Counted from the stretch's first letter, positions 1-20,141 are shown. The stretch: 33,001 bases of DNA from Perkinsus olseni (GCA_013115125.1 JABANN010000394.1:1-33001); one strand, 5' to 3'. Translations and numbers: made by a program. Notes: generated from the letters alone by a model not told the origin.

Positions 1-639
1 CATCCTCGCGGTCACCGTCCCAGCCGCCAGACCTCCGCAGCTTGCTCCAGCTGCTGTTATACTCTCCTTTGGCGATGACAACAACCTTGTTGGTGTTAGC
101 CTCAACAGGTCTATGACCTTTGGAGAAGACCTGAGTAGGGGGTGTTGTTAGCTGGAGCGCATCGGTCGTCACACAAGCGCTGTCTTCGTGGACACGAGCA
201 GACATTGCGCTGAAGCGTGATCGATATATTGAGCTACAAGCTCAACGATAATTGAACAGATCGTCTATGGCAGATGATGCAGATCCCAGGGGCTGGAAGT
301 AGCCAGCCTGCTGGAGACACAGATTATACGTTAGAGTTGACTCAGATAAGGAATGTATTCAGTTGTGTTGGATCAATTAACGGGAGTCCCTCACTGATAT
401 GCGGTCGGGCGAACCAAACAGTGTCGACCCCCCGGGCGCCTCCCTCGCCATAGAAATTGTCCCGTCGACCTCCAAATACACCGGCACAAATCGACGACCA
501 TCTTCGCACTCGTCACCAAGCGAACCAAGATACAGTCACCCTCCTTGAGTGGGCTCAATGAGTCCACCAGTTCTCGCCTGACTTCTAGATGATAGGGTGA
601 GACCGCGATGGTAGTACCATCATAGTACCGGAAGAGGTA

Positions 640-1115
640 GCACCTAGAGGTCGTAGTCGTGTAGAGAACCCGCCATGCGCCCCAAGTAAATATCCCAGGG
701 CATGTCCATCAGCGATACCATCTGCTTGATCCTCTTCACCCTGACCTCCGATAGCCCATTAGAGAGGGGACTCCACGCCGGGACTGGCAGATATTGAACG
801 GCCGTGGCGGCCAGCGATTGACGCACCACCTCAGAGAGTCTCTCACGATAGCGTATTGGTCTCTGACAGTTCTGTCAGTGACAGAGACCAAAGCGTTATC
901 GGGCATAAGACTTAGCGTAACCCCGAAGTAGGATACCCAACGATCCCGTAACAGTTTCGAGGTGGACTCAGCACCGGTCGAGGGGCACTCGCCACGACGC
1001 AATACCCAGTCGGTGAATCACCGACGGTGATGACCAGGAAAAAAGTCAGCCGACAAGCGGCGACGCTTTCAAGATTCGGGCCTTGAGGGGGATTCGCACT
1101 CCTCAACCCTCTCAT
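640..1115 (-). mobile_element. Degenerate LTR-retrotransposon (Ty3/Gypsy-like) integrase core (rve/DDE) remnant
   Basis: Three frameshifted minus ORFs join to FFLVITD...TGAESTSKLLRDRWVSYFGVTLSLMPDNA...VQYLPVPAWSPLSNGLSEVRVKRIKQ...PWDIYL. This fits the rve pattern LVIVD / W..FG.P..I.SDNG / P.SNG..ER (D, D, E). Removing the scar at 1010-1031 restores the frame at the first Asp. The element probably extends on both sides. Confidence 0.75.
1010..1031. repeat. 22-bp palindromic excision-type scar, X=TCGGTGAT
   Basis: TCGGTGA+ATCACCGA+CGGTGAT, perfect. Confidence 0.9.
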
Positions 1116-1538
1116 TTCTTGAGAACCACTGGAGCAGTCTGGTTACTGTCTCCTGGGAACAGCATAGGCGGCTATGGGGCAACTAACTGCACCAGCGTCT
1201 TGGCGGCTATGACCAATTGCCCCGTTCATTCCTCAGTGCCACTATGGACCTTGACACAGTGGTCATTCCATGGAGTTCATGGCGATCCTCATTTGCTCTG
1301 CAGAGGACACCTTCTTCCTCAGAACGCGGACTCGGTTAACGTGAATTGATCCAAGTGGCTCGATACACTTCGGCGTCCCTGTGGGTTAAAGTAAGTCTCC
1401 ATTACCAAAACTTCGCACGCCCCTTCAGTGGTACGATTCCGCACTATAGGACCGAATGCATCTCACAGCGACGTTTGGCAGTCTAGGAAAGGAGCCTTCT
1501 ACGACTCAGGATGCGATTGAATGCTTTAACGCCTCCTT

Positions 1539-2291
1539 CTAGTGGGCCGAGCCCTCACTCAGGTGCTCGGTTGTGGATCTATAAATCAGGTTGCCAGTAT
1601 ATAGTAAGTTCGCCGAACTTAGTTCGGAGCCTTGACAGTGATGGACAGTGATGTAGTACTTCGGTATCGAAGCGTGTGTATCGCACGACATAGAGTGCGC
1701 GGCCCGATTGCGAGGGATGCTCCAGGCAGATGAAGTTACCAATGTCAGACCATTTCCCACCTCGCCGACACCCCTTGGTGGTGTCGCTCGATTGCATCCT
1801 CGAGCGGACGGGGATTGCTCGGCGTGAGTTATATTTTCATAGGGTCTGCTGCGCTTCCCCATCGGCAATCCCTTCGGCCTCGTTTGTTTCAGCGCCATTC
1901 CGCCGTCGCTCAACGCAAAGATATTAGGGGAGGTGGGGAGCAGCGGGTTCATGATAAACGTTGCGTGGTTATTCACGGGTTCAATATGACGCACTCATTG
2001 TCAGTTACCCTTCTGAACTAATAGACGGTACACCTATTATCAGAATCGCCTTTGGCAGTGCGTTGACAATCTTCGAGGACGTTGATGTGCTTTTCTCGTG
2101 TATCAGGAGGGCCCTGTGTTACAGAGGCTGTGTACCAGCTGAAGGAGGCGACATTGACAATTGGTATGCGCCACGAGACCCAGCTTAAGTTCCAGGCAAC
2201 TACCTTTATTCAGGTCAGCCAGCCACGGTACGCATAATCTGGCTATCACTTTGCGTAGGTCCGTACTCCAATGTATGCATTGGAGTTTCAT
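1539..2291 (-). mobile_element. Possible degenerate MULE/Mutator-like transposase remnant
   Basis: Broken minus frames give KGDSDNRCTVY*FRRVTDNE and FALSDGGMALKQTRPKGLPMGKRSRPYENI. The spacing resembles MULE motifs D.NN...AF..V..E and SD...AL..A....FP......C..H, but key residues are substituted. Confidence 0.35.
1606..1627. repeat. 22-bp scar, X=AAGTTCGG
   Basis: AAGTTCG+CCGAACTT+AGTTCGG, perfect. Confidence 0.9.
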
Positions 2292-2540
2292 CTTTTTTGC
2301 GTGTCAAAGTTTGACAGTCAAATTGCTTCGCGCGAAGTGTTTTCGCGAGAAACGCGACTTGTTGGGTTTCGAGCCTCGAAATTCAAGGACACTTCTCGCC
2401 ATAGCGCATGCGTGAAAACGCTAACGAGATCTCGGGTGTCCCGCGTCACGCGGAGTGTTGAACGCGTTTAGAGCAGAAGGCTTGGATGTGAAAATACTAG
2501 GTCTTCGCGACGAGGGGGCGGGACTTGCGCTTGTGTGTTG

Positions 2541-2562
2541 CTCCTCAGTGAGGAGTCCTCAC
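2541..2562. repeat. 22-bp scar, X=CTCCTCAC
   Basis: CTCCTCA+GTGAGGAG+TCCTCAC, perfect. Confidence 0.9.
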
Positions 2563-2675
2563 GCCTAGCAGTATATTGAATCCCGGAATCCATGCGGGGA
2601 TTCAGGTCGTTGTCGTCGTATATGACACGCCCGCTGTAACAATGATAGCCCGATGCAGGCGCACAGGTCGGGCGA

Positions 2676-2697
2676 GTGGGAACTTCCCACTGGGAAG
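2676..2697. repeat. 22-bp scar, X=GTGGGAAG
   Basis: GTGGGAA+CTTCCCAC+TGGGAAG, perfect. Confidence 0.9.
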
Positions 2698-3082
2698 ATT
2701 ACCCGCGAGGCTGTCTCGGCAGGACGGTTTTGCAGCAGTCTACTGCCTCAAGCTGCTGCAGTATCAAAGCTGAGTACATATTGGGTGCTTTGTAGGAACT
2801 CCGACGTAGGCTGGCTCGTCAGGATTCGTGCCTTCACCCACGCGACTAGGGTTCGTGTCCCTGTATCGGGAAGTGAGTATATTTATCGTGCATCGGGCAA
2901 CGGAAGGAATTCATAGCGCAAGCCCGATAGAGTAGAGTCTACCCGGTGGGCCCCGCTCCCCCTGGGCAATTTTGGTGCCATGCGATGGACTGTGGCTTCT
3001 TTCAAGATCCAATATTCAGCAGTGGGTGAAGGGTTGTTTCAGTCGTATCCTCCCCTTGATGGAAAAGCCTAGCATTCTAGCA

Positions 3083-3155
3083 GGGGGACTAGCTCAAATG
3101 GTAGAGCGCTCGCTTAGCAAGCGAGAGGCACCGGGATCGATGCCCGGGTTCTCCA
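3083..3155 (+). tRNA. tRNA-Ala (anticodon AGC)
   Basis: Acceptor stem GGGGGAC/GTTCTCC+A, D arm AGCTCAAATGGTAGAGC, anticodon arm CTCGC-TT AGC AA-GCGAG, eukaryotic Ala-type T loop CCGGGATCGATGCCCGG, followed by TTTT (Pol III terminator). Confidence 0.97.
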
Positions 3156-3220: not shown

Positions 3221-3242
3221 CACAGAGCCTCTGTGACAGAGG
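3221..3242. repeat. 22-bp scar, X=CACAGAGG
   Basis: CACAGAG+CCTCTGTG+ACAGAGG, perfect. Confidence 0.9.
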
Positions 3243-3508
3243 CTCCACTGCATCGTTCTCGTGCACATCTACGGTCAATGCCTCGTGTGTAGTCTACACA
3301 GTGTGGACCGTCTGATCATTACGGATACTCGATCCGTAAGTGTTTCAATCTGCGCCTTCGATCATTCTCTGGATCCAAACACGCCCACCCTCTATCCCAG
3401 ACAGTAGGCGATGATACGTAAGATACGGTCCATTAATAACTCGATCGGGTCTCCGTCAGTCGCTTCATCCTCGGAGACCACCGCATTCCTGAATAAACTG
3501 ACGCTCCC

Positions 3509-3561
3509 TTGCACTAGCCCCAACTAGCTTGCACTAGCTCCAACTAGCTTGCACTAGCTTG
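3509..3561. repeat. Short tandem repeat, 20-bp unit x about 2.5 (TTGCACTAGCYCCAACTAGC)
   Basis: Directly visible tandem units built from ACTAGC subunits. Confidence 0.8.
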
Positions 3562-3710: not shown

Positions 3711-6121
3711 TTACCGAGCTCGTTCGAACATTTGCAGCTCAAAGTCCTTAGGCCCGTAAGTGAACGTGACCTCACCACGAACATTCGCTGGTGAATGACT
3801 GTTTTTAACGTCGTCAAAATGCCTAAGGATGAGGGTTATTATTGTCATGGCCTCCTTGATGGCCATATTCTGCCCGGGGCATTGACGAGGTCCCCCGCCG
3901 AATGCGAGATGGTCACGAACTCGGCCTTGGTCTATCTCAGAGCTATCAGGGATGAACCATCTCTCTGGCCTGAGAACGCAGCCGACCTTGTGGGAACTCT
4001 TTTGAAACTTGAGATGCGCGACAGTCGAATCGATGATTTACTTGAAGGTTGTGCCGCCCTGAGAATGCGCCATCATCGCTTTACGCTGTAGCGTGATCAC
4101 GACAGTCCCAGGGGGAATAGGCTTTCCAACGAGAAAAGTATCGCGGACACACTCATGGAGAAGAACCACACCCGGAGGTTGCAGCTGAAGAGAAAAGAGA
4201 GTATTGTTACAATGAGTTCATCAGAACTCACTCTGAGGGTCTCGAGTATGCAGCACTCAACGTAGGCTAGCCTGTTGAGGTCCGCTATCGTCTTGGGGTC
4301 ATGGCCGAGAGCATCCACCTCGGCCCTGGCCTTAGCTTGGATGTGGGGGTTGAAAGACAGATAGTAGAGGCACCACGATACTGCCATAGCTGTTGTATCA
4401 CTACCAGCGATCAAGAACCTGACGCGTATATAGATAGACCCCCAGTGGTTTAATAGTCATAAAATGCACACTGTCAGAGCTTTTTCGAGAAGTTTGTTCC
4501 TTTGAGAGGCATAAGGAAGCGAATTGGTAGCTACGGCTCACGTGATGAGGTTCCCCCGCAAGTCTTCTTCGTCCAGGTGAAGCAGCTTGTCCAGCAAGTC
4601 GCGTCGTTCCACTCGTCTCCCTGCTTGTTGCTCAGCCCGTCTAGCGCCAATGATTTCATCGCACAAGCTGTTAAGTCGCCTCACTCCTGTATGAAGCTGA
4701 TCAAAGGATGAGCTCAGATCGCTAAATGAGAAGCAGAGACGTACCTTCTTAATCATCAGATTGAGGTTCCAGCCTGGAACGCGGGACAGATTCCCCTGGA
4801 ACTTCCAGGGGAATCTGTCCCGCGTCATCCATGGAAAAGCGCTGAGCTGTGCGACGTAACCCGCGCCGGCCATAGCGTCGGCTATCGCTTGCTGAACCTC
4901 GTTGTAACGATAGCCGAGGGATATACCTAAAGTTAGAGACATATGCTGGTATCGGATAACATCGGCACAGGGATGCGGCACAGGAAATTATTCCTGAATA
5001 CCAGAGCCTCAGGTTAATCCGAAACGTATCGTGGGTCACGAAGGCCAATCAGATCAACTTGATATCTTGTCGCTGGTTGCGGAAAACAAGTTGGAAAGCC
5101 CTGTGTCCAGAAAATATGCAACGGTCTCGTACCGAGCTGAAAGGTGAGTCTTCGTGTTGCGGAATCCAAAATGGTATGCAGTTGAAGTGCAGCTGGACGT
5201 CATTGCCAAACCGAGCCAGGATACCCTGCTCACTGTCCGGGTTCAAGAAATTGTAGTCGTTCCCCAAGGTGGTAACACATAAGACATCGAGAGTACAGAG
5301 GGGAAGCCATTCTGTGGGCCGCCAAACAATACGGCCGGTCTGGCTGAGGGACTTCAACTGACGTACCTGAATATCCGGAGGTGGAGGGAAGACGGAGATT
5401 GGCAGCCTACCAGCTTCAATGCAACGTCGGACATATCGGGTACCATGGCGTCCGAGTTGTTGTCGTTGAAGGCCGGGGCACCCAACCGTCTGTTCCGCTT
5501 CCACTCTTCACCCTACGTATTGAACATCCCAGGGATTGGCATTATTTTGTGTTTGTTGAAAGATCTGATGTAGGTCTTCGGGCGCTCATCCTGGACTTGA
5601 CGGATGAGCTCAGGTTCGGAAACGACTACCACGTCCATGCGAGTGACCCTGAGCAGAAAGCTGGCTACCATGCTGGCACCACGAGAGTATTCGCTCGTAC
5701 CTGAGGCAGATGATAGAGCCATTGAGCACAGAAGCTTGGGCTCTAACTTGATATGGTATAAACCACCGTACGTGTCCGCGTAGATCTCCAAAGCATGGCA
5801 GAGATGATCCAACGATTTCGGTACGAAGCCCAGGATAGGGAGGAACTGCGAGAGACCAGAGGCGAGATCACAGAAAAGCTTTGAACGATAGTCCAGATTC
5901 CAAGTCAGTATAGAGTGCAGGGCAAAAGCTATGAGACTCACTCTATTAGGCCCGCCGAAGAGTGCGTGGAGGTCCACCTTCGCTCTTTGTACTAGCTTCA
6001 ATAATACCTTCAGAGCCAGAACTGAAGCTACACCGGTCACGATGATAACAGCTCTGTGCGACTGAAAAATTGATTGACATTGTTTCGCGACGTCGAGCGC
6101 CGTACCGACCAGGGATGCCAT
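3711..6121 (-). pseudogene. Cytochrome P450 copy A, 9 exons, one in-frame TAG (probable pseudogene or null allele)
   Basis: N-terminal anchor MASLVGTALDV..., I-helix AGSDTT, K-helix ETLR, PERW, heme motif FGGGPRQCPG, stop TAA at 3711-3713. All GT-AG sites align with copy B. TAG at 5513-5515 stands where the paralogues have GAG (Glu). Exon 5 carries a 36-nt in-frame palindromic insertion. Confidence 0.88.
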
Positions 6122-7419
6122 TTTTATGTAAGCTGGGAGCATGACTCTTATTTCTGAGGTCTCTCATGTCGAAAGGTTCGGCTTCACGGCTCGACACGCC
6201 TACAGCTAGTCCGTCTCAGCAAGCAAGCTTGCTGGCGTACACCTGCAGGACCTCTTCAATTCGCTTTCTCGCTGCGCCTTTCTTTCTCACCCTCGCACGT
6301 GGGACTGTCTCTTTCGTTCACTCATCTTATGCTCGTTCTCTTGAGCACAATAAGGGCGATACGATCTCCGAGGGGCTTCATGCACCACAGAGCAGCGAGG
6401 GCTGTTGCGGAGCTTGCTATATCGTACACTTAGCTCCTATGGAACCCTCGATGTCCACCGGACTTCTACTACGCATGTCGCTGGGAAGCTGTCTATCTCC
6501 TCGGGGTCGCACGCGCCATGGTATGTCTGACACGGTTTTGCTTCGTGCGGGCTAGCAACGATCACGCTTGATCGACTTCTGGTTCCCCAGTGTTAGTCTC
6601 AGCAGGGTCGACATTATGATGGCTGTCTATCAACCAATTACATTGGCAAGGCAACGCGGTCCAGATGCTCGACTCTCGGGTGACCGGTAGACATCTGTCT
6701 ACGTTCGGCGTCACGATCGATGGCCTCCTGCCGGACTACTCGTGACATTCACGCCGAGTTCTTTTGTTGCCATGGTATGAATTCCATACTATGGAACAAC
6801 CATGTGAATGTTTGAGAAACTTTCTCAAATATTCACATGGTTGTGAGGTGCGGTTCACAGTCACGGTGTTGTGGTTCACATGGCATAGCATATTTTCTCA
6901 GAGGAAGACCTACTTCGACTAGGTATGACGAAACGGTGTATAATATGGTATGATTCACTCGTTCAACCGCTTAACTCAAGTCGGCGATTTCTTCATCGAT
7001 CGACACTTTGACACGCTTGGACTATTTCAAGCCGGCTTAGGCTGGTGGGAGAGTGTAAGATTTGTAAACTGAAGGTTGGTGGTTCGGACCTGCCATCCGA
7101 CTAGTATCGCTGTATAGAGCCATAGAGAATTCTGGAGGATTGATCATCGATGTCTCGATCCATGAGCCGGATTTGTCTTTCAGAGACGATACTCGTTCAG
7201 GCGGCGCAGGCGTCAGTTCTGCGCCGACAGCTGGGAAAGCACGACGCCGAGGCGACATCATCGACCGCGCGCAGCAGCTAGCTTATATCAGGACGATACG
7301 ATTTTAACGTCAGTCCATTCCCCCTATTTGCAGGGTATGAAGTCTTTCTCTATTATTGTTCTTTATTACCCGCGGGCCCGCTCAAGGGACCCTTTTTAAG
7401 TGGGGAGAGGAGGGGAGAC

Positions 7420-7795
7420 TCTGCTCGATTGTCCATTTTGCATCACTCCCATCATCGGATGATCATCCCCCTAGATGGCGGAGCTCTTCTTCGCGCCAGC
7501 TCACTTCTCGTTGGAGATTTCCAATCCCGTCACTTAGCCTATGCCTTCATGAGAAGCAATAGCATTTTGGGCCACTGGGTCTTGGTGTCATGGGATACAA
7601 CGTTCCAGCCAGTGACCTCGGGAGACTCCCCGATGGTTCCCGATTATCGTTTTGTTCCCTAAGAAACCATCCACTGTGCGCTCCAGTACAGCGTCTCTGC
7701 GTGTATTTCCCACGGCCTGCACTCTTGCTTCGGGCAGCCCGTGCAGATGGGCACCTGGCCACCGTATGGCATCTTTGGATAAGGGATGCCATACT
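7420..7795 (+). mobile_element. Degenerate non-LTR retrotransposon (LINE) APE-type endonuclease fragment
   Basis: LLVGDFQSRHLAY...WDTTFQPVTSGDSPMVPDYRFV, then in another frame ADGHLATVW, resembling the APE motifs GDFN..H / TF....S.IDY.F / SDH. Contains stops and frameshifts. Confidence 0.5.
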
Positions 7796-7871
7796 CAGGC
7801 CCTGAGTCTCAGAGACCCTGTGGGAGGATTACTCCTTCGAGATGTGGAGCTCGAGACTCGTTTCTATCTCG

Positions 7872-7900
7872 CTGCGCAGGTTCGAATGCTGTCACTGTCG
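7872..7900 (+). pseudogene. tRNA-Ser 3' remnant (array unit 1)
   Basis: CTGCGCAGGTTCGAATGCTGTCACTGTCG aligns with the T arm and acceptor end of the intact tRNA-Ser and is followed by the same spacer GTTGTTCGTATTGGAGGAATTCA. Confidence 0.7.
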
Positions 7901-7966
7901 GTTGTTCGTATTGGAGGAATTCACCCCGCATCTTTCGGTCCCTACTGAACGAGAAGCTCAAAATAT

Positions 7967-8048
7967 GCCAGGGCGTTCGCTTGGTTGAGGAGGTAGAATC
8001 GAAACTCGCTGGGTACAACCCGGGCAGCTTCGAATCCTTCCGCTATCG
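7967..8048 (+). pseudogene. Degenerate tRNA-Ser(CGA) pseudogene (array unit 2)
   Basis: Colinear with 8230-8311 (TGGTTGAGGAGGTAGAAT CGA AA...GCAGCTTCGAATCCTTCCGCTATCG) with broken stems and the same downstream spacer. Confidence 0.75.
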
Positions 8049-8113
8049 GTGTTCATATTGGAAAAATTCATTCTGCATCTTTCGGTGTTCATTGAGCCAG
8101 GATTTTGGAACGT

Positions 8114-8185: not shown

Positions 8186-8229
8186 GTTTCGTTTCTTCCG
8201 GTCCTCATTGGGCCGGCTTTACGGAACAT

Positions 8230-8311: not shown

Positions 8312-9258
8312 GGTTGTCGTACTGGAGGAATTCATTCTGTATATCCCGATTTCTGTCGGTTCAAACTAGGTAAAGACTCGACTTTTACAGCAGTGGAACA
8401 GAGCGGAAATTTGCAAGTTTGCCGGGTTGCTGGATTCATCGGATGGAATTCGTCTTCGTGAATATATTCTATGGTCTGAGTATGTTGCCCGATGTATACA
8501 GCACTTCCGTGACGGAAATGTCCGGGTTGAGGGTACTCAATGAACGGGTCGAACTTCGATTGGGTCACGGAGTCTGTGGAACAGGCGACGCATAACATGA
8601 GTTGGATTTGCACTGGTCAATCTTGACCGTGTATTGTCAAGCCTGGTTGTGATTCTGTTTTTCTTGCTTGCGATATTTTTGCGAGAGCGAATCTTCCCCT
8701 TGTCAGTTTGAACTTGAGGTGGAATCCATATCTACTTAATCCGTTACCCTTCCGTTCCAGGCGATGGGTGGTAGGCCAGCAAGCCTGTGGCGCGCGCCAA
8801 AACAGGAGCTGGGTGCCACGGGCTTGTCTGGCTTGTGCGAAGGTTGCCCAGCAGGTTGCTGGCAGCGACGCAACGCACCGCCTGTGTGGGCGGGTGGTAA
8901 AAAACAACTGCTCAGCTGTGAGCTTATATCCGCTACTAGCGGCTTTCTACGGCCGGGTTTGCAGGTGACCGGGTCACCCTAGCAGCTTCTAGCTGAGCCT
9001 CTCTCACCGGCCGTAAATTTAGAATGATCATCATCCGTGGTGTTGACGTATCTGAGATGAGACAAACTTGGACTTGACATCGATATAACGCCATCGTGAT
9101 AACAGCCCGGTAACATACCTTTGATCCTGTAGCAGGATGCGGTCGCACTGTCTAACAACATGCCCATGGACGAAAGATTTGAGTGACTCACTGAGTGTAC
9201 ACCGTGTACACTCTGTAACAGTGAGAGCCGACCTAGTGACGATTATTCGCTGTTTCCA

Positions 9259-9280
9259 TGCCATACTATGGCAGCCATAG
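9259..9280. repeat. 22-bp scar, X=TGCCATAG
   Basis: TGCCATA+CTATGGCA+GCCATAG, perfect. Confidence 0.9.
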
Positions 9281-9503: not shown

Positions 9504-11849
9504 CTAATCGGCTCGCTGGTACATCTGCAGCTCGAGGTTCTCAGGCCCGTAAGTAAAGGTAACCTTACCTCGAACGCATGAGGGTGAATGATTAAGTCTA
9601 ATATCATCAAAAAATCTTAGGATCAGAGCCATTATCATAGTGGCCTCCTTGATGGCCATATTCTGCCCGGGGCACTGACGAGGGCCTCCCCCAAATGCGA
9701 GATGGTCACGTACAAGGGACTGGTCTATCGACACGCCATCATTGGTGAACCAACGTTCCGGCCTGAGATTCACGGCATAACCGAGGAAATCGTATTCGAA
9801 TGCAGTCAACGCGACAAGCCACTAAACTAAGTACTGGTAGGTCGTGCCGCCTTGAGATTTCGACACCATCACTTGGTGCTGGAGTACGGCCACAACAGTA
9901 CCAGCGGGAACTGGCTTTCCATCGAGCAAAGTGTCATCAACGCACTCATTGAGGAGAAATACACTCGGGGATTGCAACTGAGAAGAATCCATCACAGCTT
10001 CGCCTGATTTAACGACAGCCCACTCTGAGGGTCTCGAGTATGCAGCACTCAACGTAGGGTAGTTGGTTGAGGTCCGCTATCGTCTTGGGGTCATGGCCGA
10101 GAGCATCCACCTCCGCCCTGGCCTTAGCTTGAATGTGGGGGTTGAAAGACAGATAGTAGAGGCACCACGATACTGCCATAGCTGTTGTATCACTACCAGC
10201 GATCAAGAACCTGACGGCAAGTGGTGTATGCCATGATGCTACATTGTAGCATCATGGCAGGAGTTGTAGCAGCTGCAACTCCTGCCGCTCTTCCAGTGGC
10301 GCTCTAAGCTATCAGTGGCAGGCCCGAAACGGACAAGAGCTTGTGAGTCGGCAAGAAGAGCTCACGTGACGAGGTTTCCCCGCAAGTCCTCCGGGTCTAG
10401 ATGCAGGAGTTTGTCGAGCAAGTTGCGTCGCTCCACCCGCCCTCCTCGTGCCGCTTGCCGCTCGGCCCGTCTACTGCTGATAATCTCATCGCAGATTCTG
10501 TTGAGCCGCTTCACTCCCGTATGCATCTGACGACCAGAAATGACGAAACCACCAACGACGAGCACCTGACCTTTCTGATCATTGGGTTGAGGTTCCAAGG
10601 GAATCTATCCCGTGTCATCCACGGGAAGGAACTGAGCTGAACGGCATAACCCGACCCGGACAGGGTATCCACTATCGCCCTCTGGACCTTCCCAGATCGG
10701 CTACCAAGACGCAGACCTGAGAAAGCACTGCGTCACACACTGTGTTACTCACGCAGTCGAATGATCTACTGATCTTGGCAGAGCTCAGGCTGCTTCGGGG
10801 AGTGCAGCAGCATCGAGTCAAGCAGAGTAATTAGCGTCCGCGATGACGTCGCTGAGCTCACCCGGAACATCTGCTTACCATCGGGATTCAAAAAATTATA
10901 GTCGTTCCCTAAGGTGGTGACACATAAGACATCGAGGGTACAGAGTGGAAGCCATTCTGTGGGACGCCAAACGATACGGCCGTCCTGGCTGAGGGACTTC
11001 AACTGACGTACCTGAACGTGAACCGAAGCACCTGGTGAAGTGCGGTGATCGGTCATTCACCAGCTTCAATGATACTCTCAACATGTCAGGTACCATAGCC
11101 GCTGAATTTTTGTCATTGAAGGCCGGGGCACCAAACCGCCTGTTCCTCTTCCACGCGTCACCCTCTGTAGTGAACATTCCCGAGAGAGGTATTATTTTGT
11201 GCTTGTTGAAGGGCCTAATGAAGGTCTTCGGGCGCTCATCCAAAACTTGTCTGACCAACTCAGGCTTGGACAAGACGATCACGTTCATTCCAGTAATCCT
11301 GAGAGACAACAGACCGCCGTCACAAACTTACTGGAGCCTGCGCTTGTCACTGATGCAGAGCGAAGAGCAGGAGAACAAAACGCTCACTTGATGTGATAAA
11401 CATCACCGTACGTGTCCGCATAGATCTCCAAGGCACGGGCAAAATGATCCATCGACTTTGGTATGAAGCCCAGGATAGGAAGAAACTATCAGAGAGCGTT
11501 GCGCACAGTTTGTGTTAACGCTAACAGGCCACAATTGCAATCTTCTTTTCACTGAATTATCCAATAGGCTATTGCATAACCTAGTGAAAAGGGTCCGCTA
11601 CTGTCAGTAGTGACCCTATTCGGTCCATAAAAACAGGACGATGCAAATGAGGGCCGAGATCCAGGGACTCACATGATTTGGTCCGCCGAAGATAGCATGG
11701 AGATCCACCTTGGTACGTCTTAGGAACCTCAGAGCCTTCAAGGCAAGTACTGAGGCTATACCGCTCACAAGGATGAGTGTTCCGTGCGACCGGAAAATTG
11801 ATCGACACTTCACTACGAGGTCCTGGGCAGCGACGAGTAAAGGTGCCAT
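9504..11849 (-). CDS. Cytochrome P450 copy B, intact, 9 exons, 513 aa
   Basis: Exons 11849-11673, 11485-11388, 11298-11061, 11011-10879, 10716-10571, 10526-10366, 10210-10024, 9977-9835 and 9762-9504 total 1542 nt. All introns are GT-AG and the frame is open. Motifs WKRNR (C-helix), AGSDTT, ETLR, PERW, FGGGPRQCPG. Confidence 0.93.
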
Positions 11850-12965
11850 ACACAGGATGAATGTCGAGCACTGAAAGATTCCTCGTGAAATCCGAGCGGC
11901 TCCAGTAGATCATGGCTTCCGGAATGAGAGCAGACTTCGAGAAGAAATTTCAGCAACAGGGGCTCTGACGTCTGAGTCCTTTGAAGTCGCCAGCAGGGGC
12001 GATTCCAGGCCTAGGCAAACAAGGCAACTGCCTAGAGTCCCCCTGGCAACTGGCCAGGGATCCGCGCTGATCTACAGCGGTTGATAGATGCCTCTATGCT
12101 TTAGTGAAGCTGCTTTACAGTAACTCACCGTGAGTATGAACTTCAATTGCAGATTTCGAGGCGAATGACTCCCCTGCATTTTGATCATGAGCGTCGTGCT
12201 GGTTAATCCCTCGAGAGAGGCAAACTGCTTGCACGACGCAATCACATGTTGCTCCACGACGAGATGCTTGTCGTGACCCATAGGCTAGACACCAACTCTG
12301 AACAGGGCTGGAGAGAGCCAGAAACCTGTCCTCCGAAGGACCCTGTGTATGCGCACTTAACAATTTTAGCTATAGTGAACATCAGAACCCGCGCTCGCCA
12401 CGAGTGACATAGAGCACGGTGACGTACTGAAGTAGAACGGTTACGTCCAGATAGAATGGGATTCTGAGCGCCGGGAGAGAAGTTCTAAAATTCGGAAAAT
12501 AGCGAAGATCATGTTAGCGCTATCCGAAAGTGTCCACCGTTAGTGAGTGCCCAAAGGTCTTGGGCCACAGCAGAGAAGAAGGGCGCGCCACATACTCAAA
12601 CGAAGCATTCAATGAAGCTACTGTAGAGCTAGCGAAACGACTCTTGAGGACCAGACTCCTGGTGTGCGCTGATTCAGCGCCGCTGAACGCAGCCCTTTCT
12701 TTGCTGAGAGTGAGGCTAAGATACCAGCAGTGGATACGGCGTCAGGCGGCTTCCAATTGCCTTCCGAACAGTCAATGGAGAAACCCTGGTTTCTACATTT
12801 ACCCCGGTTCTTATCGGTTACCCAATTTTCAGTGGTTTAACCGAGTGCAGCTTGGCGTGGCTCAAACAGCTGGAGCTTAGCAGACTAGATATCTATTTCA
12901 TAGCTTCTAGTAGTACTGGATAAAAGAGAATGAGTTCTAACTAAAATCGCATGTCTTAGGCTCTA

Positions 12966-12987
12966 GTCAGATGATCTGACTCAGATC
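12966..12987. repeat. 22-bp scar, X=GTCAGATC
   Basis: GTCAGAT+GATCTGAC+TCAGATC, perfect. Confidence 0.9.
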
Positions 12988-13245
12988 CGTACCACACGCT
13001 GTTCACTCTGCCAAACCTCTGAATTCTAAGAATGTCGTAGACTACTAGAACAGGTGATTGATGAACAATCTGATGAATCATTTCCTTGAACGAAAACGGT
13101 TTAAGCTCTACTCCGTATTAAGTTTGACGGATAACATTTTCCATACAGTATCATCATCAGAGAGGAAATAAAATATTTATCATGACCTTGGTCATCATTG
13201 GGAAACGGACGACATTTGAAATGATCATGTTGTAACATTAGTATT

Positions 13246-15098
13246 TCAAATGTCGTCCGTTCCCCAGGGAATCCCCAGTGTGTACATCCGCAGTTCAAGA
13301 TTCTTTGACCCACATGTGAGAGTAGCCTTACCTCGAACGGACTCGGGCGAATGATTAAGTTTAATATCATCAAAATATTGCAAAATTAGAGCCAGTACCA
13401 TAGTAGCGTCCTTGATGGCCATATTCTGGCCGGGGCATTGACGAGGACCCCCACCAAATGCGAGGTGGTCACGCACTAGGACTCGGTCGATCTCAGAGCT
13501 ACCAGGTATCAACCAGCGCTCTGGTCTGAGATATATTGATTGTTGGGAGAGCGGTTCTAGGAGATAGCCGGAAATCGAGTCGATTACGTACTTGAAGCTT
13601 GTGCCACATTCAGCCACCATCGCTCCGCGTAGAAGCGCGCCTACGATAGTACTGGAGGGAATCGGCTTCCCAACCAGCAAGGAGTCAGAAATGCACTCAT
13701 GAAAGAGGAATCGACCCGGGGGTTGTAGCTGAGGAGATTCGACGATATATTTGCGTGGGTCGCCGAGTGCCCACCCTGAGCGTCTCTAGCAAGCAGCATT
13801 CAACATAGGCCAGGTCGTTGAGGTCTGCCCTAGTCTTGGGGTCACGGCCTAGGCCACCCACCTCGGCGCTGGCCTCAGTTTGAATGTGGGGGTTGAGGGA
13901 CAGATAGTAGAGGCACCACGATACAGCTATGGCTGTTGTGTCGCTTCCAGCGATCAAGAACCTGTAATCGCTGATATATGCTCCGGTCTTAGGCAGAGCC
14001 ACTGGAATGCTCGGCACCTGTCAAGAAAAAAGTAGTAACCGGAAACTCCCGTAATGAGGTTTCCGCGTAAGTCCCCGAGGTCGAGATGTAGGAGTTTATC
14101 TAGCAAGTTGCTTCTTCCGCGTGGCCTCGCTGCATGCTGCTCAGCTTGTCTGTCACTGATAATTCCATCACAGATCGTATTAAGTCGTTTCACTCCGTTG
14201 TGCATCTGATGGGCCAAGCACCAGTAAGGCCCGTGAAATTACGCTCACAACCGTGGGCAGCAAACTAGCGTTGATATTCCTACCTTCCTGGTCATTGGAT
14301 TGAGATTCCAGGGAAACTTATCCCGTGTCATCCACGGGAAGGAGCGGAGTCGCACGGCGAAGCTGGAACCGGCCCGGTGGAAGGAAAAATAGGGCACCCA
14401 ACCGTCTGTTCCGCTTCCACTCTTCACCCTCCGTGTTGAACATACCCGGGATCGGCATTATCTCGTGCTTGTTGATAGCTCTGATGTGGGGTCTTCGGGC
14501 GTTCACTCAAAACTTGACGAACCAACTCTGGATTGGAAACGGCTACCACGTCTGAGGTAGCTATTCTGAGAATAACGGGGACTATTCACAAGAATCATCC
14601 TGGGTGAGTGCTCGCTGATCGCTCACGGAGGCGAGAGAACTTTCGAAGGCGGAAGTTCTAAATCCTACGACATCGGTCTCACTTGATGTGGTATATGTCA
14701 CCATAAGTATCGGCATAGACCCCCAGGGCACAGAAGAGAGGGTCCACGGACCTTGGTACGAAGCCCAAAATGGGAAGGAACTACGAAAAATCGTTTGCAG
14801 GGTCAGACTCAGCACACTTGCTATTCTCGAGGACGTGCGGAGGCTATTCCAGCTCGACTGAGCACGTGCACAAGCAGGGTGTCGAGCCCTGGGCTCACTA
14901 GACTCACATGAGTAGCCTACTCAGAGTAGGTCCCCCGAAAAGGGAATGAAGGTCCACCCTAGCTCGCTGCACGAACTTAAGAGCCTTCCAGGCTAGCACT
15001 GAGGCTACACCGATTCCGAAAATCAGTGCCCCGTGCGACTCAGAGAGTGTTCGGCACCTCGCCACGATGTCCTGGGTGGCAATGAGTGATGATGTCAT
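13246..15098 (-). pseudogene. Cytochrome P450 copy C, pseudogene
   Basis: Same exon plan and motifs (AGSDTT, ETLR, PERW, FGGGPRQCPG). It carries a 14-nt frameshifting scar in exon 1 (14909-14930), a +1 frameshift near 14486-14492, and a deletion near 14375-14392 that removes the end of exon 3, all of exon 4 and the start of exon 5. Confidence 0.9.
14909..14930. repeat. 22-bp scar, X=TGAGTAGG, in P450 copy C exon 1
   Basis: TGAGTAG+CCTACTCA+GAGTAGG, perfect; the paralogues have a single site. Confidence 0.92.
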
Positions 15099-16280
15099 TT
15101 CTACCATCATATAAGCTGCAGAAGGTTCTCCGAGAATCACTATCGCGAAAATTGAGGATCGTAGGACTATGCGAAATTCATTCAGTTTGGGTTAGACCTT
15201 TCAGACGCCACCCTCACAGGTCTTCGTCGGTAACTGAGTAATCGGGTGGCGAGTGATGAGTCACATCACGTGGATTAGTCATAAGTTTACAAGAACCGAT
15301 ACTACTATCGTCATTTACATACACAATTATTGCTGTCCCCTTTCAACACAACACAGCTTAGTGTGGCTAAGATTCATATTCAATCTAGCTGTTGTTATTC
15401 AAGTACATGATTGACCACTACTGTCCGTACTGTGAGATGATCGTTATTATTTATTGTTCAAGGTTTATTCCCATTCGTATAATCTCTCCTGCGTAATGTC
15501 TAATACCTCATTATACAGTGATACTATTCCGAGGCGGAAAGGTGGAGTCGAGTTGGTTAATTCTAGTACATAAGTATCCGGGAGATCCCATCGTTATGAA
15601 AAATTCGTTCGTTAGCCCTCTAAGACGCCTCCTCAGCACCGCTGGGGCAAACTTGAATTTACCGTGCCCGCAAAATTGTGCCGCTATGGTGGAGCAAGTA
15701 CACACTGGCTGACTCTCGTGGGAAAAGGGTCCAATCTAATACCAACCGTTCATTATTCAACGACGGGCTTGTCCTTGCGCCTCCCCGGGAGGCCCCCTCG
15801 GAATCGTTCTAGCAATTCGCGATGCCGCATATCCTTTCTTTGTGCTCACGGTTTCCGTACTCGCAGCCTGCGAGTCGCAGGAGTTCTGGCTTCGGGTTCC
15901 GAGGTTCGGCCCGAGGAATAGGAACGCGTTTATCATGTATCACACGCGTGGCGCAGTGCTTCACTCAATAGCGTATTAGAGGCGTTCAACAAACCGATTC
16001 TGAAATTCAGAAGCGATTCTGAGTTACTGAACGGGGGGATTTGGCGTTAGTAAGGCGCAAGATTCACTAAACGCGCGGAATGCTAGATTCTTGCGTTGCA
16101 GCTTCAATGTGATCTACGCCGTGAGTGGAGACTCATTCCCAAGGACCGCTTGACAAGCAGTACTTATCAAGCGGTGCTTAGAGCAGTCCGTTATACTTGG
16201 ATCACTAGCCGAGTTGGCTTTGCGAGCCCTGTACTACAGGGCCTACAGGGCCTGTAGGCGGGTTGCCATGTGCTTGGTTC

Positions 16281-16302
16281 ATGTTGAGTCAACATTGTTG
16301 AC
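16281..16302. repeat. 22-bp scar, X=ATGTTGAC
   Basis: ATGTTGA+GTCAACAT+TGTTGAC, perfect. Confidence 0.9.
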
Positions 16303-17099
16303 CTTTGGACAAGTCATTTATAGACACAGAGATGTCAGCAGCCCTTCCGACAAGCGAGAGTGTCCAGAGACAGCCGTAGATCCCGCTATAGAGAGAGGAT
16401 GGGAATGGACTGGAATGGGGAATGGATGGGAATGCATGTTTGTCCGAACGTGAGACTTGGGCCTCTTTTCGCCAACATTGTGCTCACCGTTCATCCTTTG
16501 CCACAAAAATGTCGAAAAAGGCCGACACGGACAGCTCATTGTCAGTAGCGTCTCCAGGAGTCGGCAAAAAGACGGGGGATTGAGTAGTTGTCGAGAGAAG
16601 CTCAGGTTGTCCTTTGGACATTTACCGCTCGCCTCGGCATTTATCGCCACGCCACACTCGGCCTAGGATGGAAAGCCGTGACTGCATGCGGCAGCCCATG
16701 GTGATTGCACTCTACTTGGCAGGTTGATGGGAATAGCAGCCTGATAAGTACAACAAGATCGTTTGAAGCGGGTGTGGGAATGTCAGAGGAACAACGTTTC
16801 TCTCATAATGCGAACACTTTGAATGGCATTCATTCATTCGCAAGCGATCGCTAATACTCTCATCGTACCTTCAGCGCTGTGTCAGACAGTCTGACTCATA
16901 CTGACGCCATCACTGTCTACTTGTGTTGGAAAACATATCGCTGTAGTGCCGATACCGCTGCCTGGCTTAGCTGCGCTGTTATAGCGCCGCTACAACAGCG
17001 CCGCTGTTTCAACCGTCCATGCGGCGGTGAGTATTACTAACTTAGTAGCATTGACAGGATACTTGTATTATCATAGTAGTTACGAAATTCATTCGGCAT

Positions 17100-18360
17100 G
17101 TTCAACGAGAAAATCTTCGTCGGACAGTCCCCGTTTGCGATGGGGTTTTTCGAATATATCTTCGCAGATATATCGATATCTGATTCCCAATCATGCCCAA
17201 CATGCCTCCGAAACATCAAGGATCGTCGGGAGAGGATCAGCGCTCCCATGGGTCCCCCAGTTTGTCGGCAGCTGACGGCTCTACATCTACCTGCATACTC
17301 GTTACCACTATCGACGTTCTCGCCCAAGTCTACCGTTTGGATCTCCCCTCCGGTATTCCAGAGGAACTCCTTCTAGGGAGAGATATATGTATTCAAAGAG
17401 GACGCTACCCCAATCCAAGTCTTCGTTGTTGATGCATCCGTGATGGCGGCCGAGGGACTTTTCTCGACACACTCCATACTGAGCTACCCTGTATGAAGCC
17501 TTGTGCCGTTGCCTTGATGATGCGGATTCCTTGAGTACGGAGGAGCTGGCTTGGGTCCTAAGGAGACGGCTATATATTGTCCTGCATACGACGGAATCTT
17601 TTTGGGCTGGTGAGCGCTCGGCCAGCTTTTTGGAGAACTGGGCCCGAGGTTTCCCACCGGGGAGCTACGATGCGGAGAAATTGAACAGATTGTTTCCTTA
17701 TGTTGTCTAGAATGGCCCATTCTGAATGGGCACGTGAAAGGCCAGTGGTCGTTGTACCAGTTGCATAAGACAATCAGTGGAACACTCAGGTCTCTGCAAT
17801 TTATCTCAGATAACGTCCATAGCAGCCTATTGGTACAGCAGTCCAAATACTGGAAGGGCCCCAAGAAGGTTGACCTGTCTGTGGCGAATCCGACCTGGGA
17901 TATTTTATTCAACGTGCTATGCGCTCCCCACTGGTCGCATAGGATTCGCATAGCGGATACCGGTACTGTCTTCTCAATGGGTCCTCGTATGTACAACCAA
18001 CATAAGGCGGAGTCAAATGATGTCCATCGGGGAAACTATATGGAAGGACTCGTCTCTCTGGCTATGGCGCAGCTTGGGGATATGACCAGCGTGTTACTTT
18101 CGGTCATTCTTGCTCTCCGAATTCAGCACGAGAACCGGCTCGTTCTGCGAAATATCCGGCAGAATATTGCTTACTGTCGGCAGCACAACTGCGAGTTGAA
18201 TATACTGCAGGATCCTGCCGAAGACAGTGATACGTTCGCTAAGTGGTAAGAGGAGTGGCGAGGCGCTACATCTTTGCTTGTCCATCTCTTCGAGATCGGC
18301 GAGTTGTCGCTCAAGCACTCCTACTGGATGAGAATGTTCAATCGATCCTTCCACGGTACC
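17100..18360 (+). pseudogene. Degraded coding sequence, weak resemblance to GT34 (GMA12/MNN10-like) glycosyltransferase
   Basis: Protein-like stretches interrupted by stops. NIRQNIAYCRQHNCELNIL...TFAKW loosely resembles the N...YA..HGY...W.K motif. Family call is tentative. Confidence 0.3.
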
Positions 18361-18397
18361 GCTGCGACGCACGTGGTAGCGTTAAACACTAAGGTAT

Positions 18398-18419
18398 CTC
18401 GTAAGTTACGAGTCGTAAC
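18398..18419. repeat. 22-bp scar, X=CTCGTAAC
   Basis: CTCGTAA+GTTACGAG+TCGTAAC, perfect. Confidence 0.9.
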
Positions 18420-19127
18420 GCCGGTCACGTAGCAGCTCCCCGCGGTCGAGGTAATTGAGGGTTTTGTTAGGGGAATACAGGCCGAGGCTTGAGGTCGAGC
18501 CACCCTTACAGGGCATGTCTCACTACTACCTCTTGCCAAGGCCTGAACCTCGTTCGGGTGACCTCCTTGTGGTGTTTGCTGAACCATTTGTTAATGCTTA
18601 CTTAACATAACTCACTACCATTACTTGTAGATGTTGAAGTATCGTGTTAGTGAAGTTGATGCTAACGAGAGTAATTTAGGAGCAGCTAGTCAGCAATGTT
18701 CGTGCCGTCTAGATATGCACTGCAGCCTGTGTAGTACAAATAAGCAAGGTAGGTTATCTATCTTGATAAGAATTGAGTTGAAGAGTAAGCGCGAAAAAGT
18801 ACCGAAACCACGGCTATCTGGAAAGGTAACTGAAATCGAGCAATCTATGGTATTAATTCGAGGTTGAAAGAGTTACGATGAGTTGGGAATGAACGAAACG
18901 AACGTCCATCGTAGGCCGTCTACAGGGAGCTAAAGTTTCGCAGCCCTACTGTCCGAGCCTCATTGAAACTGCTTCGGCCAAATTTGAAGTATCAAAGACT
19001 ACTTCTTCCAAGAAATCGACACTTTTGGACAGATAACTGTCGACGAACAAGTAGTTTGAACAAGGGATCTTGGACAACTCGGCAGGTAGCTGTCGAAAAT
19101 CTCCGAAGTACACCTTTCGACAAGGTT

Positions 19128-19149
19128 GTTGCAAATTGCAACTTGCAAT
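19128..19149. repeat. 22-bp scar, X=GTTGCAAT
   Basis: GTTGCAA+ATTGCAAC+TTGCAAT, perfect. Confidence 0.9.
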
Positions 19150-19647
19150 AGTGGGTCTCGATACTTGTCGAAATGTCACCGGACATCTTTTCTCAGTTTT
19201 CTCCCCAATTGACGTGGAGGAGGCCCTTTGGACAAGTCGACACGCGAGAAGTGTACAAAAAACATGTCCAGTACTCTCCCTAAGCGAAGCTGTAGCCAAC
19301 AGTTGTCCAAAGAAGATATTGACCGGCGCGCGCTTTCTGTATATTGTTGTCGAAAGATTAGTCCTAGTGCTAGATTTTGACAAGTGTCGGCGTTTGTAGA
19401 ATGGACGGAAAGACGATGTTGCCCAAAGCCTTTGGGCCAGAGGAGCGCTTACGCTACCACGTGTGTACTTTGGCGATTGTCTACTACATTTCCTAGCGTA
19501 CTAAGTCTGGGCCTACCGAGTCGGTCCTGTGTCGGTACTACCGGCGGTAGTACCGTCGGCGACCCCCCAGCTCGGGGATAGAACCATCGGGTTCTGAAAT
19601 CGACGTGAGGAACGTCTCGTAACTATTCCGAGCTCACAGTTCCCTTG

Positions 19648-19691
19648 TCCCGAAGTTCGGGACCCGAACGGTCAGAGTCTGACCGTCAGAC
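19648..19691. repeat. Two abutting 22-bp scars, X=TCCCGAAC and X=GGTCAGAC
   Basis: TCCCGAA+GTTCGGGA+CCCGAAC immediately followed by GGTCAGA+GTCTGACC+GTCAGAC, both perfect. Confidence 0.9.
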
Positions 19692-20119
19692 TGCTGCCAT
19701 CTTTGGCGTGCGCTACTGTTTGTGTCATGATGATCGCCCGACAGTTGTGCTACCTTGCCGCTAGTATGTTCTAAGGAGTCCTTTGACACTCTCGTCATAC
19801 CAGCATCGTCATACTTTGATGTACTAGATCCTCGGATTTATGTTTTTTTTCATTTGACACTTCTAGCTTCAATCGACTCGTTGCCGGTGCTCAGATCAAG
19901 TTGAGCGCCGCTCAGCTTGAGACTGGGATTCATCCGCTCAATGAGTGGATGAACCCCAGTCTTTAGAACGAATATATTCCTAAGCACAAGGCCTTGGATT
20001 GAGTTGCTTACTTCTCGGAGAAGGTATTCGGCATCTACTGATCACCAGAACCGTTCTGGCACCTAATGGTTCCAGAGTTACTTCTTATTCACTGTCTGAA
20101 CTTGGGGTTCCCCGGGATG

Positions 20120-20141
20120 GATGACCGGGTCATCATGACCC
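20120..20141. repeat. 22-bp scar, X=GATGACCC
   Basis: GATGACC+GGGTCATC+ATGACCC, perfect. Confidence 0.9.

Follow-up and report, generated by a model that had tools for sequence, protein, structure and literature searches.

Palindromic 22-bp scars in Perkinsus olseni DNA as probable excision footprints of a hAT-type transposon

Transposons of the hAT superfamily mostly duplicate 8 bp of target DNA and form hairpins on the DNA that flanks them, according to an excerpt of PMC5499845. For Ac/Ds, part of PMC5873905 gives the palindrome centre as the complement of the base adjoining the element and describes published hAT footprints as mostly short and heterogeneous; in partial accounts, reinsertion of Ac/Ds tends toward linked sites. 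Here, we analysed a window of 33,001 nt (GCA_013115125.1 JABANN010000394.1:1-33001) from the mollusc parasite Perkinsus olseni, and found motifs that are probably footprints left at donor sites by a cut-and-paste DNA transposon using hAT-type chemistry. If so, this contig's non-coding DNA would preserve an unusually clean natural archive of transposon movement and of the repair of DNA breaks.

Geometry of the 22-bp scars

The canonical scar reads X[1-7]+revcomp(X)+X[2-8], where X is an 8-mer, and spans 22 bp with a net gain of 14 bp. The whole window contained 17 perfect copies, built on 8-mers unrelated to each other in sequence. With mismatches scored against the best X, the numbers of scars with zero, one and two mismatches showed a graded decay (17, 10 and 7), compared with means of 0, 0 and 0.25 in 20 dinucleotide-preserving shuffles. 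Matches with three mismatches (18 versus 3.8 in shuffles) were left out of the count because many were echoes of real scars shifted by 7 nt. With up to two mismatches, 32 of the 34 scars lay within 607-20141, the remaining two being at 28212 and 28858 (Table 1). All 14 perfect scars listed in an initial annotation of this DNA were recovered at their starts, joined by three more at 12666, 15860 and 17709, and its five "one-change" scars were all real, those at 607, 3286, 6775 and 16881 carrying one mismatch each and that at 863-885 being a perfect scar with one additional T behind X[1-7]. Its chance expectation of ~1e-4 per window was arithmetically correct.

Scanning the length k of X gave 17 matches at k=8, versus 0, 0 and 0 in shuffles, and none at k=6, 7 and 9-13, which is the sharp peak at k=8 predicted beforehand; small excesses appeared at k=4 (22 versus 9-12 in shuffles) and k=5 (5 versus 0-1). 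Among the 16 combinations of arm offsets tried at k=8, only (1,1), with both arms one base shorter, produced matches. There were 59 palindromes with a 1-nt centre and arms no shorter than 7 nt, versus 2.8 in shuffles, while those with 2-nt and 4-nt centres numbered 6 and 7, versus 1.2 each, and palindromes without a centre base were not enriched in the window (0 versus 1.6), strong enrichment being limited to those with a single central base. Pairing odd palindromes in which both outer arms point to one duplicated target (the two-pivot test) returned 19 perfect events with k=8, at a distance of 7 in 17 cases, 16 in one and 29 in one. The same test found no events with k=6, 7 or 9-13 in the window, and thus none with 9- or 10-bp targets; raising the distance limit added one further event, at distance 86. 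Comparison with the single-X sites of paralogues confirmed that the centre bases are complementary to X8 and X1. This geometry, the exclusive 8-bp target and the single-base pivots are read directly from the sequence.

Table 1 Scars, variant footprints and lone palindromes in the window
Coordinates	Feature	X	Remark
607..628	canonical scar, 1 mismatch		
863..885	scar with P tracts a=1, b=8, 23 bp	CTGACAGA	centre of an older palindrome with arms of ~23 nt (846-901)
1010..1031	perfect canonical scar	TCGGTGAT	
1606..1627	perfect canonical scar	AAGTTCGG	
2113..2134	canonical scar, 1 mismatch		best-X count
2302..2323	canonical scar, 1 mismatch		
2367..2388	canonical scar, 1 mismatch		
2541..2562	perfect canonical scar	CTCCTCAC	
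2676..2697	perfect canonical scar	GTGGGAAG	
3221..3242	perfect canonical scar	CACAGAGG	
3286..3307	canonical scar, 1 mismatch		
4766..4825	long-P footprint	GTTCCAGG	exon, P450 copy c1; left P 6-8 nt, right P 22-24 nt, joint over 2-nt microhomology
6775..6796	canonical scar, 1 mismatch		adjoins long palindrome 6796-6844
6796..6844	single-pivot palindrome 24-1-24, 1 mismatch		second target copy not recognised
7450..7468	short footprint, P total 5		
7793..7814	canonical scar, 1 mismatch		
8848..8869	canonical scar, 2 mismatches		
9193..9213	single-pivot palindrome 10-1-10		
9259..9280	perfect canonical scar	TGCCATAG	
10229..10286	long-P footprint	TGCTACAA	intron, P450 copy c2; two 16-nt P tracts, 4-nt overlap, one later substitution
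12097..12118	canonical scar, 2 mismatches		
12666..12687	perfect canonical scar	GCGCTGAA	absent from initial annotation
12966..12987	perfect canonical scar	GTCAGATC	
13260..13278	short footprint, P total 5		
14909..14930	perfect canonical scar	TGAGTAGG	exon 1 end, degenerate P450 copy c3
15779..15800	canonical scar, 2 mismatches		
15860..15881	perfect canonical scar	CTCGCAGG	absent from initial annotation
15998..16022	7-1-7 palindrome, then 4-nt filler and near copy of target		atypical joint
16227..16259	footprint, both P tracts retained in tandem (a+b=17)	CCCTGTAG	
16281..16302	perfect canonical scar	ATGTTGAC	
16881..16902	canonical scar, 1 mismatch		
16973..17008	complex site: 2-mismatch scar, then another 7-1-7 palindrome		
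17027..17048	canonical scar, 2 mismatches		
17709..17730	perfect canonical scar	AGAATGGG	absent from initial annotation
18398..18419	perfect canonical scar	CTCGTAAC	
19128..19149	perfect canonical scar	GTTGCAAT	
19422..19443	canonical scar, 1 mismatch		
19533..19555	single-pivot palindrome 11-1-11		
19648..19669	perfect canonical scar	TCCCGAAC	adjoins scar 19670
19670..19691	perfect canonical scar	GGTCAGAC	
20120..20141	perfect canonical scar	GATGACCC	
28130..28235	two-pivot event	ACTGATTG	arms 10 + 9 nt; ~57 nt of repetitive filler separates P tracts
28858..28879	canonical scar, 1 mismatch		beyond span of initial annotation

Footprint variants and a proposed mechanism

Written as X[1-7] + a left-P + b right-P + X[2-8], a general model exactly generated the footprints at 863 (1+8), 4766 (a+b=30) and 16227 (a+b=17). 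Total P lengths of 0-4 occurred at chance level; two sites had a total of 5 and 17 a total of 8, with none at 6 or 7. The longer variants, whose P tracts measure 16+16, 8+24 and 9+8 nt, obeyed the same pivot rule.

Such footprints could arise if insertion of the element duplicates the 8-bp target X and excision nicks each flank 1 nt inside its own X copy, the nick offset of Hermes also being 1 nt. The freed 3'-OH would attack the opposite strand at the element end and seal each flank as a hairpin, whose tip would be the complement of the base that had touched the element. Opening of the hairpins several to many bases off the tip would leave a palindromic P tract on each end, the left one comprising revcomp(X) and beyond and the right one its complement. 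As the two P tracts originate from two copies of one X, they would be complementary in register, and annealing, flap trimming and fill-in would give the canonical 22-bp product, while other short homologies or direct joining may yield the longer palindromic joints (P tracts of 16+16, 8+24, 9+8 and 1+8 nt).

Every geometric test that could be run fit the core of the initial reading, namely a cut-and-paste element with an 8-bp duplication and flank hairpins offset by 1 nt. That reading also had two 8-nt overhangs annealing; the product stands, but the need for two full 8-nt overhangs does not, as by derivation P tracts with a and b each at most 8 and a+b at least 8 would yield the same 22-bp product by in-register overlap. 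Almost all of the breaks would have been repaired through annealing of the P tracts in this register. We infer the hairpin intermediates, the repair pathway, the transposase family and departure by excision rather than by another route; a massive past wave and a microhomology-dominated repair route, both proposed initially, may lie behind the record.

Replication template switching or fold-back priming without a transposon, in which a polymerase briefly copies the opposite strand and switches back, also creates local inverted copies of adjoining sequence, and is compatible with a window scan in which 8-bp duplications around inverted ends gave four matches, versus three and eight in shuffles, none of them convincing, in agreement with the earlier remark that no intact element was visible. 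However, template-switch mutations are not fixed in length and do not duplicate a target, and their length and pivots should vary, whereas here the target was always 8 bp, with nothing at k=6, 7 and 9-13, the centre was always one base, and the long-arm variants kept the same two pivot positions. In addition, a full copy of X stood on both flanks, therefore requiring a prior duplication. Taken together, these observations make template switching very unlikely.

Single-X sites and genomic setting

The footprint at 4766..4825 adds a net 36 bp, or 12 in-frame codons, to an exon of P450 copy c1, and the paralogous P450 copies c2-c4 of the window are in the single-X state without these 36 bp. Copy c4 has a single-X site where c2 carries the footprint at 10229..10286, and c1 aligns over the 14909 site of c3 without the 14 extra bases. 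The 12-aa c1 footprint was present in protein models of two P. olseni assemblies, including this contig's own, the second model differing from it at 1 of 1119 residues. It was missing from a partial model of a third assembly, with otherwise identical flanking exons, and from a 93%-identical gene of a fourth. The empty, single-X state expected in the initial annotation was therefore seen in three paralogue comparisons and one allele.

None of the 34 scars fell in the bodies of P450 c1, c2 and c4 or the JmjC reading frame, versus 8.7 expected by hand calculation from their 25.6% share of the window. The motifs lie in introns, a pseudogene and intergenic DNA. Non-genic DNA carries ~2 scars per kb, which, with no resident copy in the window, is far denser than is known to us for any transposon and weighs against the footprint reading. 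When 32 sites were compiled into a target logo and symmetrised (n=64), it showed T at position 2 in 28/64 and A at position 7 in 28/64 against a background of ~24%, with a similar Y/R bias at positions 3 and 6; the hAT target consensus is nTnnnnAn, a weak preference. Like the geometry, the single-X sites of paralogues and of the other allele, the gradual decay over time and the scarcity of scars in genes are read from sequence.

Amplified libraries can give palindromes, and the motifs might thus be a sequencing, library or assembly artefact, which is highly improbable given their graded decay over 17, 10 and 7 copies, their avoidance of gene bodies, the c1 scar lying in frame inside an exon, and the presence of that scar in two assemblies and its absence from the allele of a third. 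Arguing weakly in the same direction, 0.92-0.96 of sampled 31-mers from 10300-20200 were found in six runs from two studies, one of which runs may be the assembly's own source, whereas by hand estimate the share would be at most ~0.92 if all 18 scars of this interval were missing. The motifs might also be functional hairpins kept by selection, for instance as protein-binding sites or RNA structures, which would match the ability of each to form one or the other of two overlapping 7-bp stems, but a 1-nt loop is not stable, the 8-mers are unrelated and the copies decay, the motifs are missing at the homologous sites of paralogues and another allele, and the settings are introns, a pseudogene and intergenic DNA, making this explanation extremely improbable.

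Transposon family and comparison with known systems

The superfamily behind these probable excision footprints is most likely hAT (Ac/Ds-type), a judgement by analogy with known chemistry rather than from a transposase in the window. The same footprint formation might instead belong to another superfamily with ~8-bp duplications, such as Merlin/IS1595-like, Mutator-like or P elements or an undescribed flank-hairpin family with a 1-nt offset, in keeping with the finding that the 20 longest unassigned reading frames of the window contained no transposase domain, that of hAT included. We consider this unlikely, as all 19 perfect two-pivot events were exactly 8 bp and none 9 or 10 bp, which disfavours mixed 8-10 bp families because some 9-10 bp events would then be expected; moreover, we know of no evidence that Merlin leaves a centre base complementary to the element-adjoining base. 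Such a centre is documented for Ac/Ds in part of PMC5873905. Merlin is known in the genus, an excerpt of PMC8101967 reporting reading frames related to Merlin that carry conserved DDE motifs (P. marinus; 3 of 8 Perkinsidae genomes) and 8- or 9-bp duplications for the family, and stating that terminal repeats and duplications were not found for the P. marinus copies. Muta1, a Mutator-like element, likewise combines 8- or 9-bp duplications with flank hairpins, but its duplication length varies and >90% of its yeast excisions are precise, as given in part of PMC5499845. Here, by contrast, the target never departs from 8 bp and footprints are the norm.

In RAG and Transib hairpins the joined positions lie directly opposite each other, giving palindromes without a centre base, and the Transib duplication is 5 bp; unlike in these systems, centreless palindromes are not enriched in the window. 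The likeness lies in off-centre opening of flank hairpins, which also produces palindromic additions in RAG V(D)J coding joints and Transib (PMC5499845, in part).

As in Ac/Ds, Tam3 and Hermes, the duplication is 8 bp and the P palindromes are centred on the complement of the element-adjoining base, and the described hAT systems further feature microhomology-biased joints, palindrome arms of up to 20 nt in yeast and local reinsertion (PMC5873905 and PMC5499845, both in part). Unlike the hAT footprints studied so far, those described here form an ancient genomic record, with the element not seen in the window. Footprints described from plants, yeast and Candida are heterogeneous and for the most part short, Candida yielding 28 types among 128 revertants with P tracts no longer than 3 nt, whereas here one product dominates, the in-register joint with a full revcomp(X), found in 17 perfect copies versus two short footprints. 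The short footprint classes are essentially missing, and the repair step therefore appears to differ from that of the studied hosts.

Number, length and placement of the scars

An exact scan of the window (33,001 bases, 51.5% G+C) for the canonical scar, the 22-bp arrangement X[1-7]+revcomp(X)+X[2-8] built on an 8-bp target X, recovered all 14 perfect copies listed in the initial annotation and added three, starting at 12666, 15860 and 17709, which gives 17 perfect 22-mers. Counted by mismatches to the best X, the whole window held 17, 10 and 7 hits with zero, one and two mismatches, against means of 0, 0 and 0.25 in dinucleotide-preserving shuffles (n=20), while the three-mismatch class (18 vs 3.8 in shuffles) was left out of the counts because many of its members are genuine scars picked up again at a 7-nt shift. 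The five one-change versions described earlier are likewise real, and one of them, 863-885, departs from a perfect scar only by an extra T. A sharp peak at target length k=8, proposed there as the mark of a target duplication, was evident in the window, where k=8 gave 17 hits and k=6, 7 and 9-13 gave zero, together with small excesses at k=4 and k=5 (22 vs 9-12 and 5 vs 0-1 in shuffles, respectively). When the arms were truncated at k=8, hits occurred in 1 of 16 combinations, solely that in which both arms are one base shorter.

Template switching should not fit this spectrum, as the 8-bp fixity would be unexpected and complete copies of X would not be left on both flanks. Another transposon superfamily with hAT-like chemistry may have made the scars, given that Merlin-related genes occur in P. 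marinus (PMC8101967) and Muta1 combines 8-9-bp duplications with flank hairpins (PMC5499845); this reading is countered by the absence of 9- or 10-bp targets from the window and by the mostly precise excision of Muta1 (PMC5499845). The same paper gives 8 bp as the prevailing duplication length of hAT elements, and describes hairpin formation on flanking DNA for hAT, Transib, Mutator-like elements and RAG alike (PMC5499845).

P. olseni is an alveolate parasite of molluscs, and the window contains a minus-strand tandem array of cytochrome P450 genes, comprising four paralogues (c1-c4) and the start of a fifth. Because copy c3 has a large internal deletion and one of its scars breaks the frame, it is probably a pseudogene. 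Parts of c3, c2 and c1 are fused in the public protein model of the contig (1119 residues). In the 469-codon frame at 23475-24884, Pfam matches were confined to a cupin/JmjC domain and to KDM8-like repeats at the N-terminus, although the product is named DNA-(apurinic or apyrimidinic site) lyase in the source annotation. Ahead of the tRNA-Ser gene lie incomplete repeats of the gene's 3' part and of the sequence that follows it (7872-7923 vs 8283-8334; 7876-7939 vs 8024-8086; 8078-8172 vs 8194-8288), and short tandem repeats with periods of 20 and 10 lie at 3508-3561 and 24827-24852.

Genes and reading frames of the window
Feature	Coordinates	Strand	Remark
Fifth P450 copy, start	17-130	-	
tRNA-Ala gene	3083-3155		
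P450 copy c1	3717-6121	-	
tRNA-Ser gene	8229-8312		
P450 copy c2	9507-11849	-	
P450 copy c3	13285-15098	-	large internal deletion
P450 copy c4	20415-22694	-	
JmjC frame	23475-24884	-	100% identical to a P. olseni protein
Zinc-finger frame	24928-25521	-	CCCH and C2H2-type matches; unannotated neighbour gene

Of the 34 scars with at most two mismatches, 32 fall within 607-20141. The gene bodies of c1, c2 and c4 and the JmjC frame, 25.6% of the window, contain no scar where 8.7 would be expected (chance of zero ~4e-5, hand calculation). Non-genic DNA of the window carries ~2 scars per kb, and their clustering is not significant (~5-6 gaps of at most 65 bp vs ~4 expected, hand estimate). The earlier remark that no intact element is visible held up, inverted ends beside 7-, 8- and 9-bp duplications being at chance in the window. 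Pfam detected no transposase domain among the 20 longest unassigned reading frames of the window, and a metagenome search with a P. olseni P450 returned one distant hit (33% identity) and no Perkinsus relative.

Palindrome geometry and variant footprints

Perfect palindromes with a 1-nt centre and arms of 7 nt or more, the longest being 23, numbered 59 in the window and 2.8 in shuffles, whereas palindromes without a centre base were not enriched in the window (0 vs 1.6 in shuffles) and those with 2-nt and 4-nt centres showed a mild excess (6 and 7 vs 1.2 each). Each pair of odd palindromes was then examined for agreement of its left and right outer arms on one duplicated target of length k, with the centre bases taken to be complementary to the target's last and first bases. 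This two-pivot test yielded 19 perfect pairs at k=8, separated by 7 nt in 17 cases, 16 in one and 29 in one, and zero at k=6, 7 and 9-13 in the window; a higher distance limit added one pair, 28140/28226, 86 nt apart.

A general product, X[1-7] followed by a left and b right P bases (the palindromic bases expected from an opened flank hairpin) and X[2-8], matches base for base the events at 863 (1+8), 4766 (a+b=30) and 16227 (a+b=17). The footprint at 10229-10286, with P tracts of 16+16 nt and a 4-nt overlap, fits except for one later substitution. Sorted by a+b, footprints with intact target ends were at chance at 0-4, occurred twice at 5, never at 6 and 7, and 17 times at 8, and simple tandem XX duplications of period 8 were not enriched in the window (6 vs 7.5 expected). 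Other enriched duplication periods reflect ordinary tandem repeats or events already explained. On the basis of the two-pivot pairs and the general product, 16227-16259 is described as two tandemly retained P tracts, and the alternative of a scar with an added 9-bp tandem duplication was dropped.

An old, decayed palindrome with ~23-nt arms (83% complementary) spans 846-901 and has the 863-885 scar at its centre, which suggests that a second event struck the middle of an earlier footprint. At 28130-28235, the ~57-nt filler between two P tracts holds three copies of a 9-10-nt unit (28161-28181) and may be a templated insertion made during repair. Just downstream of c3, an old palindrome at 13199-13266, with 33-nt arms that are 88% complementary and 2 nt apart, may be a decayed footprint with long P tracts (long-P).

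Unscarred sites among paralogues and assemblies

Because the P450 intergenic spacers are not homologous to each other, only three events could be compared among paralogues. The site of the 60-bp c1 footprint (4766-4825) is a single TTCCA(A/G)GG in c2, c3 and c4, with a net gain of 36 bp in c1; the target of the 58-bp c2 footprint is in single copy in c4; and c1 aligns across the c3 scar at 14909 without the 14 extra bases. Thus, of the empty, filled and scarred states that the initial annotation proposed to compare, the empty state was found in paralogues and in one allele, but the window offered no convincing filled site. A selected hairpin function of the scars is contradicted by their absence at homologous sites, by their decay and by their unrelated sequences.

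Within exon-homologous sequence, the c1 footprint leaves the frame open and adds 12 residues. It is present in the contig's own annotated protein and in the protein of a second P. olseni assembly, which differs at 1 of 1119 residues. A third assembly lacks it in a partial protein whose flanking exons equal those of the window except for two residues beside the footprint and one elsewhere, and a fourth lacks it in a gene with 93% identity. The third-assembly model cannot merely splice out the 36 bases, as the residues right after the site differ from the window's. Judged from these assemblies and their protein models, at least one scar event is therefore polymorphic within P. olseni.

The reading of the scars as an artefact is hard to square with this presence and absence among assemblies, the in-frame exon event, the graded decay and the avoidance of genes. 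Weak evidence in the same direction comes from sequencing runs, in that 0.92-0.96 of sampled 31-mers of 10300-20200 were present in six runs from two studies, where the share would be at most ~0.92 if all 18 scars of the interval were missing (hand estimate) and the assembly may itself derive from one of the runs. Two other runs had a share of 0.15, and none of the runs listed was from RNA.

Two changes lie close to the c1 footprint: positions 4750 and 4758, both within 16 nt of it, account for the sole two residue differences between the scarred c1 and the unscarred third-assembly allele in this region, the unscarred allele agreeing with the paralogues, and they may reflect repair-associated mutagenesis. 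The c2 footprint coincides exactly with a change in c2 from c1-like to c4-like sequence. Over 10107-10206, left of the footprint, this copy shares 96-100% identity with c1 and 80-88% with c4, whereas over 10302-10449, on the right, identity is 100% with c4 and 40-76% with c1. The pattern resembles tracts of ectopic gene conversion or of recombination that end at the break site.

Probable excision origin, proposed repair and meaning of the scars

hAT elements are well known for leaving such footprints, Hermes nicking one base into the flank, and the geometry observed here is the exact prediction of hAT-type chemistry. We consider it likely that the scars are transposon excision footprints, and their geometry points to the hAT family as a putative source. 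Palindromic footprints of the Ac/Ds type have been put down to flank hairpins that are opened and then joined, with palindrome arms of up to 20 nt in yeast and microhomology at 85-100% of Arabidopsis and yeast joints (PMC5873905).

Under such a mechanism, a nuclease opening the hairpins would leave on the left flank X[1-7], then revcomp(X), then the reverse complement of upstream sequence, and on the right flank the mirror image. As both P tracts would derive from copies of the same X, tracts a and b (each at most 8, a+b at least 8) would overlap in register, and by our derivation annealing and fill-in by a polymerase would convert every such pair into the same 22-bp product; longer tracts would give 3' flaps needing trimming. 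Dominance of this product would require only that hairpins are mostly opened ~4 bases or more away from the tip, or that resection unfolds them, and that joining favours annealing. Long-P joints with 2-4 nt overlap imply opening positions spanning 1 to at least 24 bases.

A broader reading, which we put forward tentatively as possible rather than probable, is that a Perkinsus genome carries ~10^5 scars (~2 per kb of its non-genic DNA) that mark the passage of a hit-and-run hAT-like element which is hardly ever retained, with long P tracts kept and annealed in register, perhaps since Ku-dependent classical end joining is lacking or weak. If so, excision rather than insertion would be a main source of indels, small palindromes and coding insertions in the lineage, as well as of local substitutions and ectopic gene-conversion breakpoints.

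The excision reading itself, if true, would make the scars a fossil record of transposon traffic, invisible to repeat finders because they have geometry in common and not sequence, and would mean that a genome can be heavily shaped by elements no longer present. The outcome spectrum (17 perfect in-register joints, few long-P and almost no short ones) would be a natural read-out of hairpin opening and joining in Perkinsus, bearing on the evolution of alveolate repair pathways and on genome editing in the genus. The scars have consequences, with 12 codons added to a P450 gene and polymorphic among assemblies, and their graded decay may make them usable as dated neutral markers.

Literature searches on Perkinsus transposons, target duplications, hAT elements and palindromes found no description of the scars, and searches on footprint structure found no report of the 22-bp product as dominant, although footprint tables and supplements outside those searches may contain it. 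Three features are unusual here, namely ~2 scars per kb of non-genic DNA without a resident element in the window, a near-uniform single product, the full in-register revcomp(X) joint, and the near absence from the window of short footprints, the dominant hAT outcome in plants and Candida.
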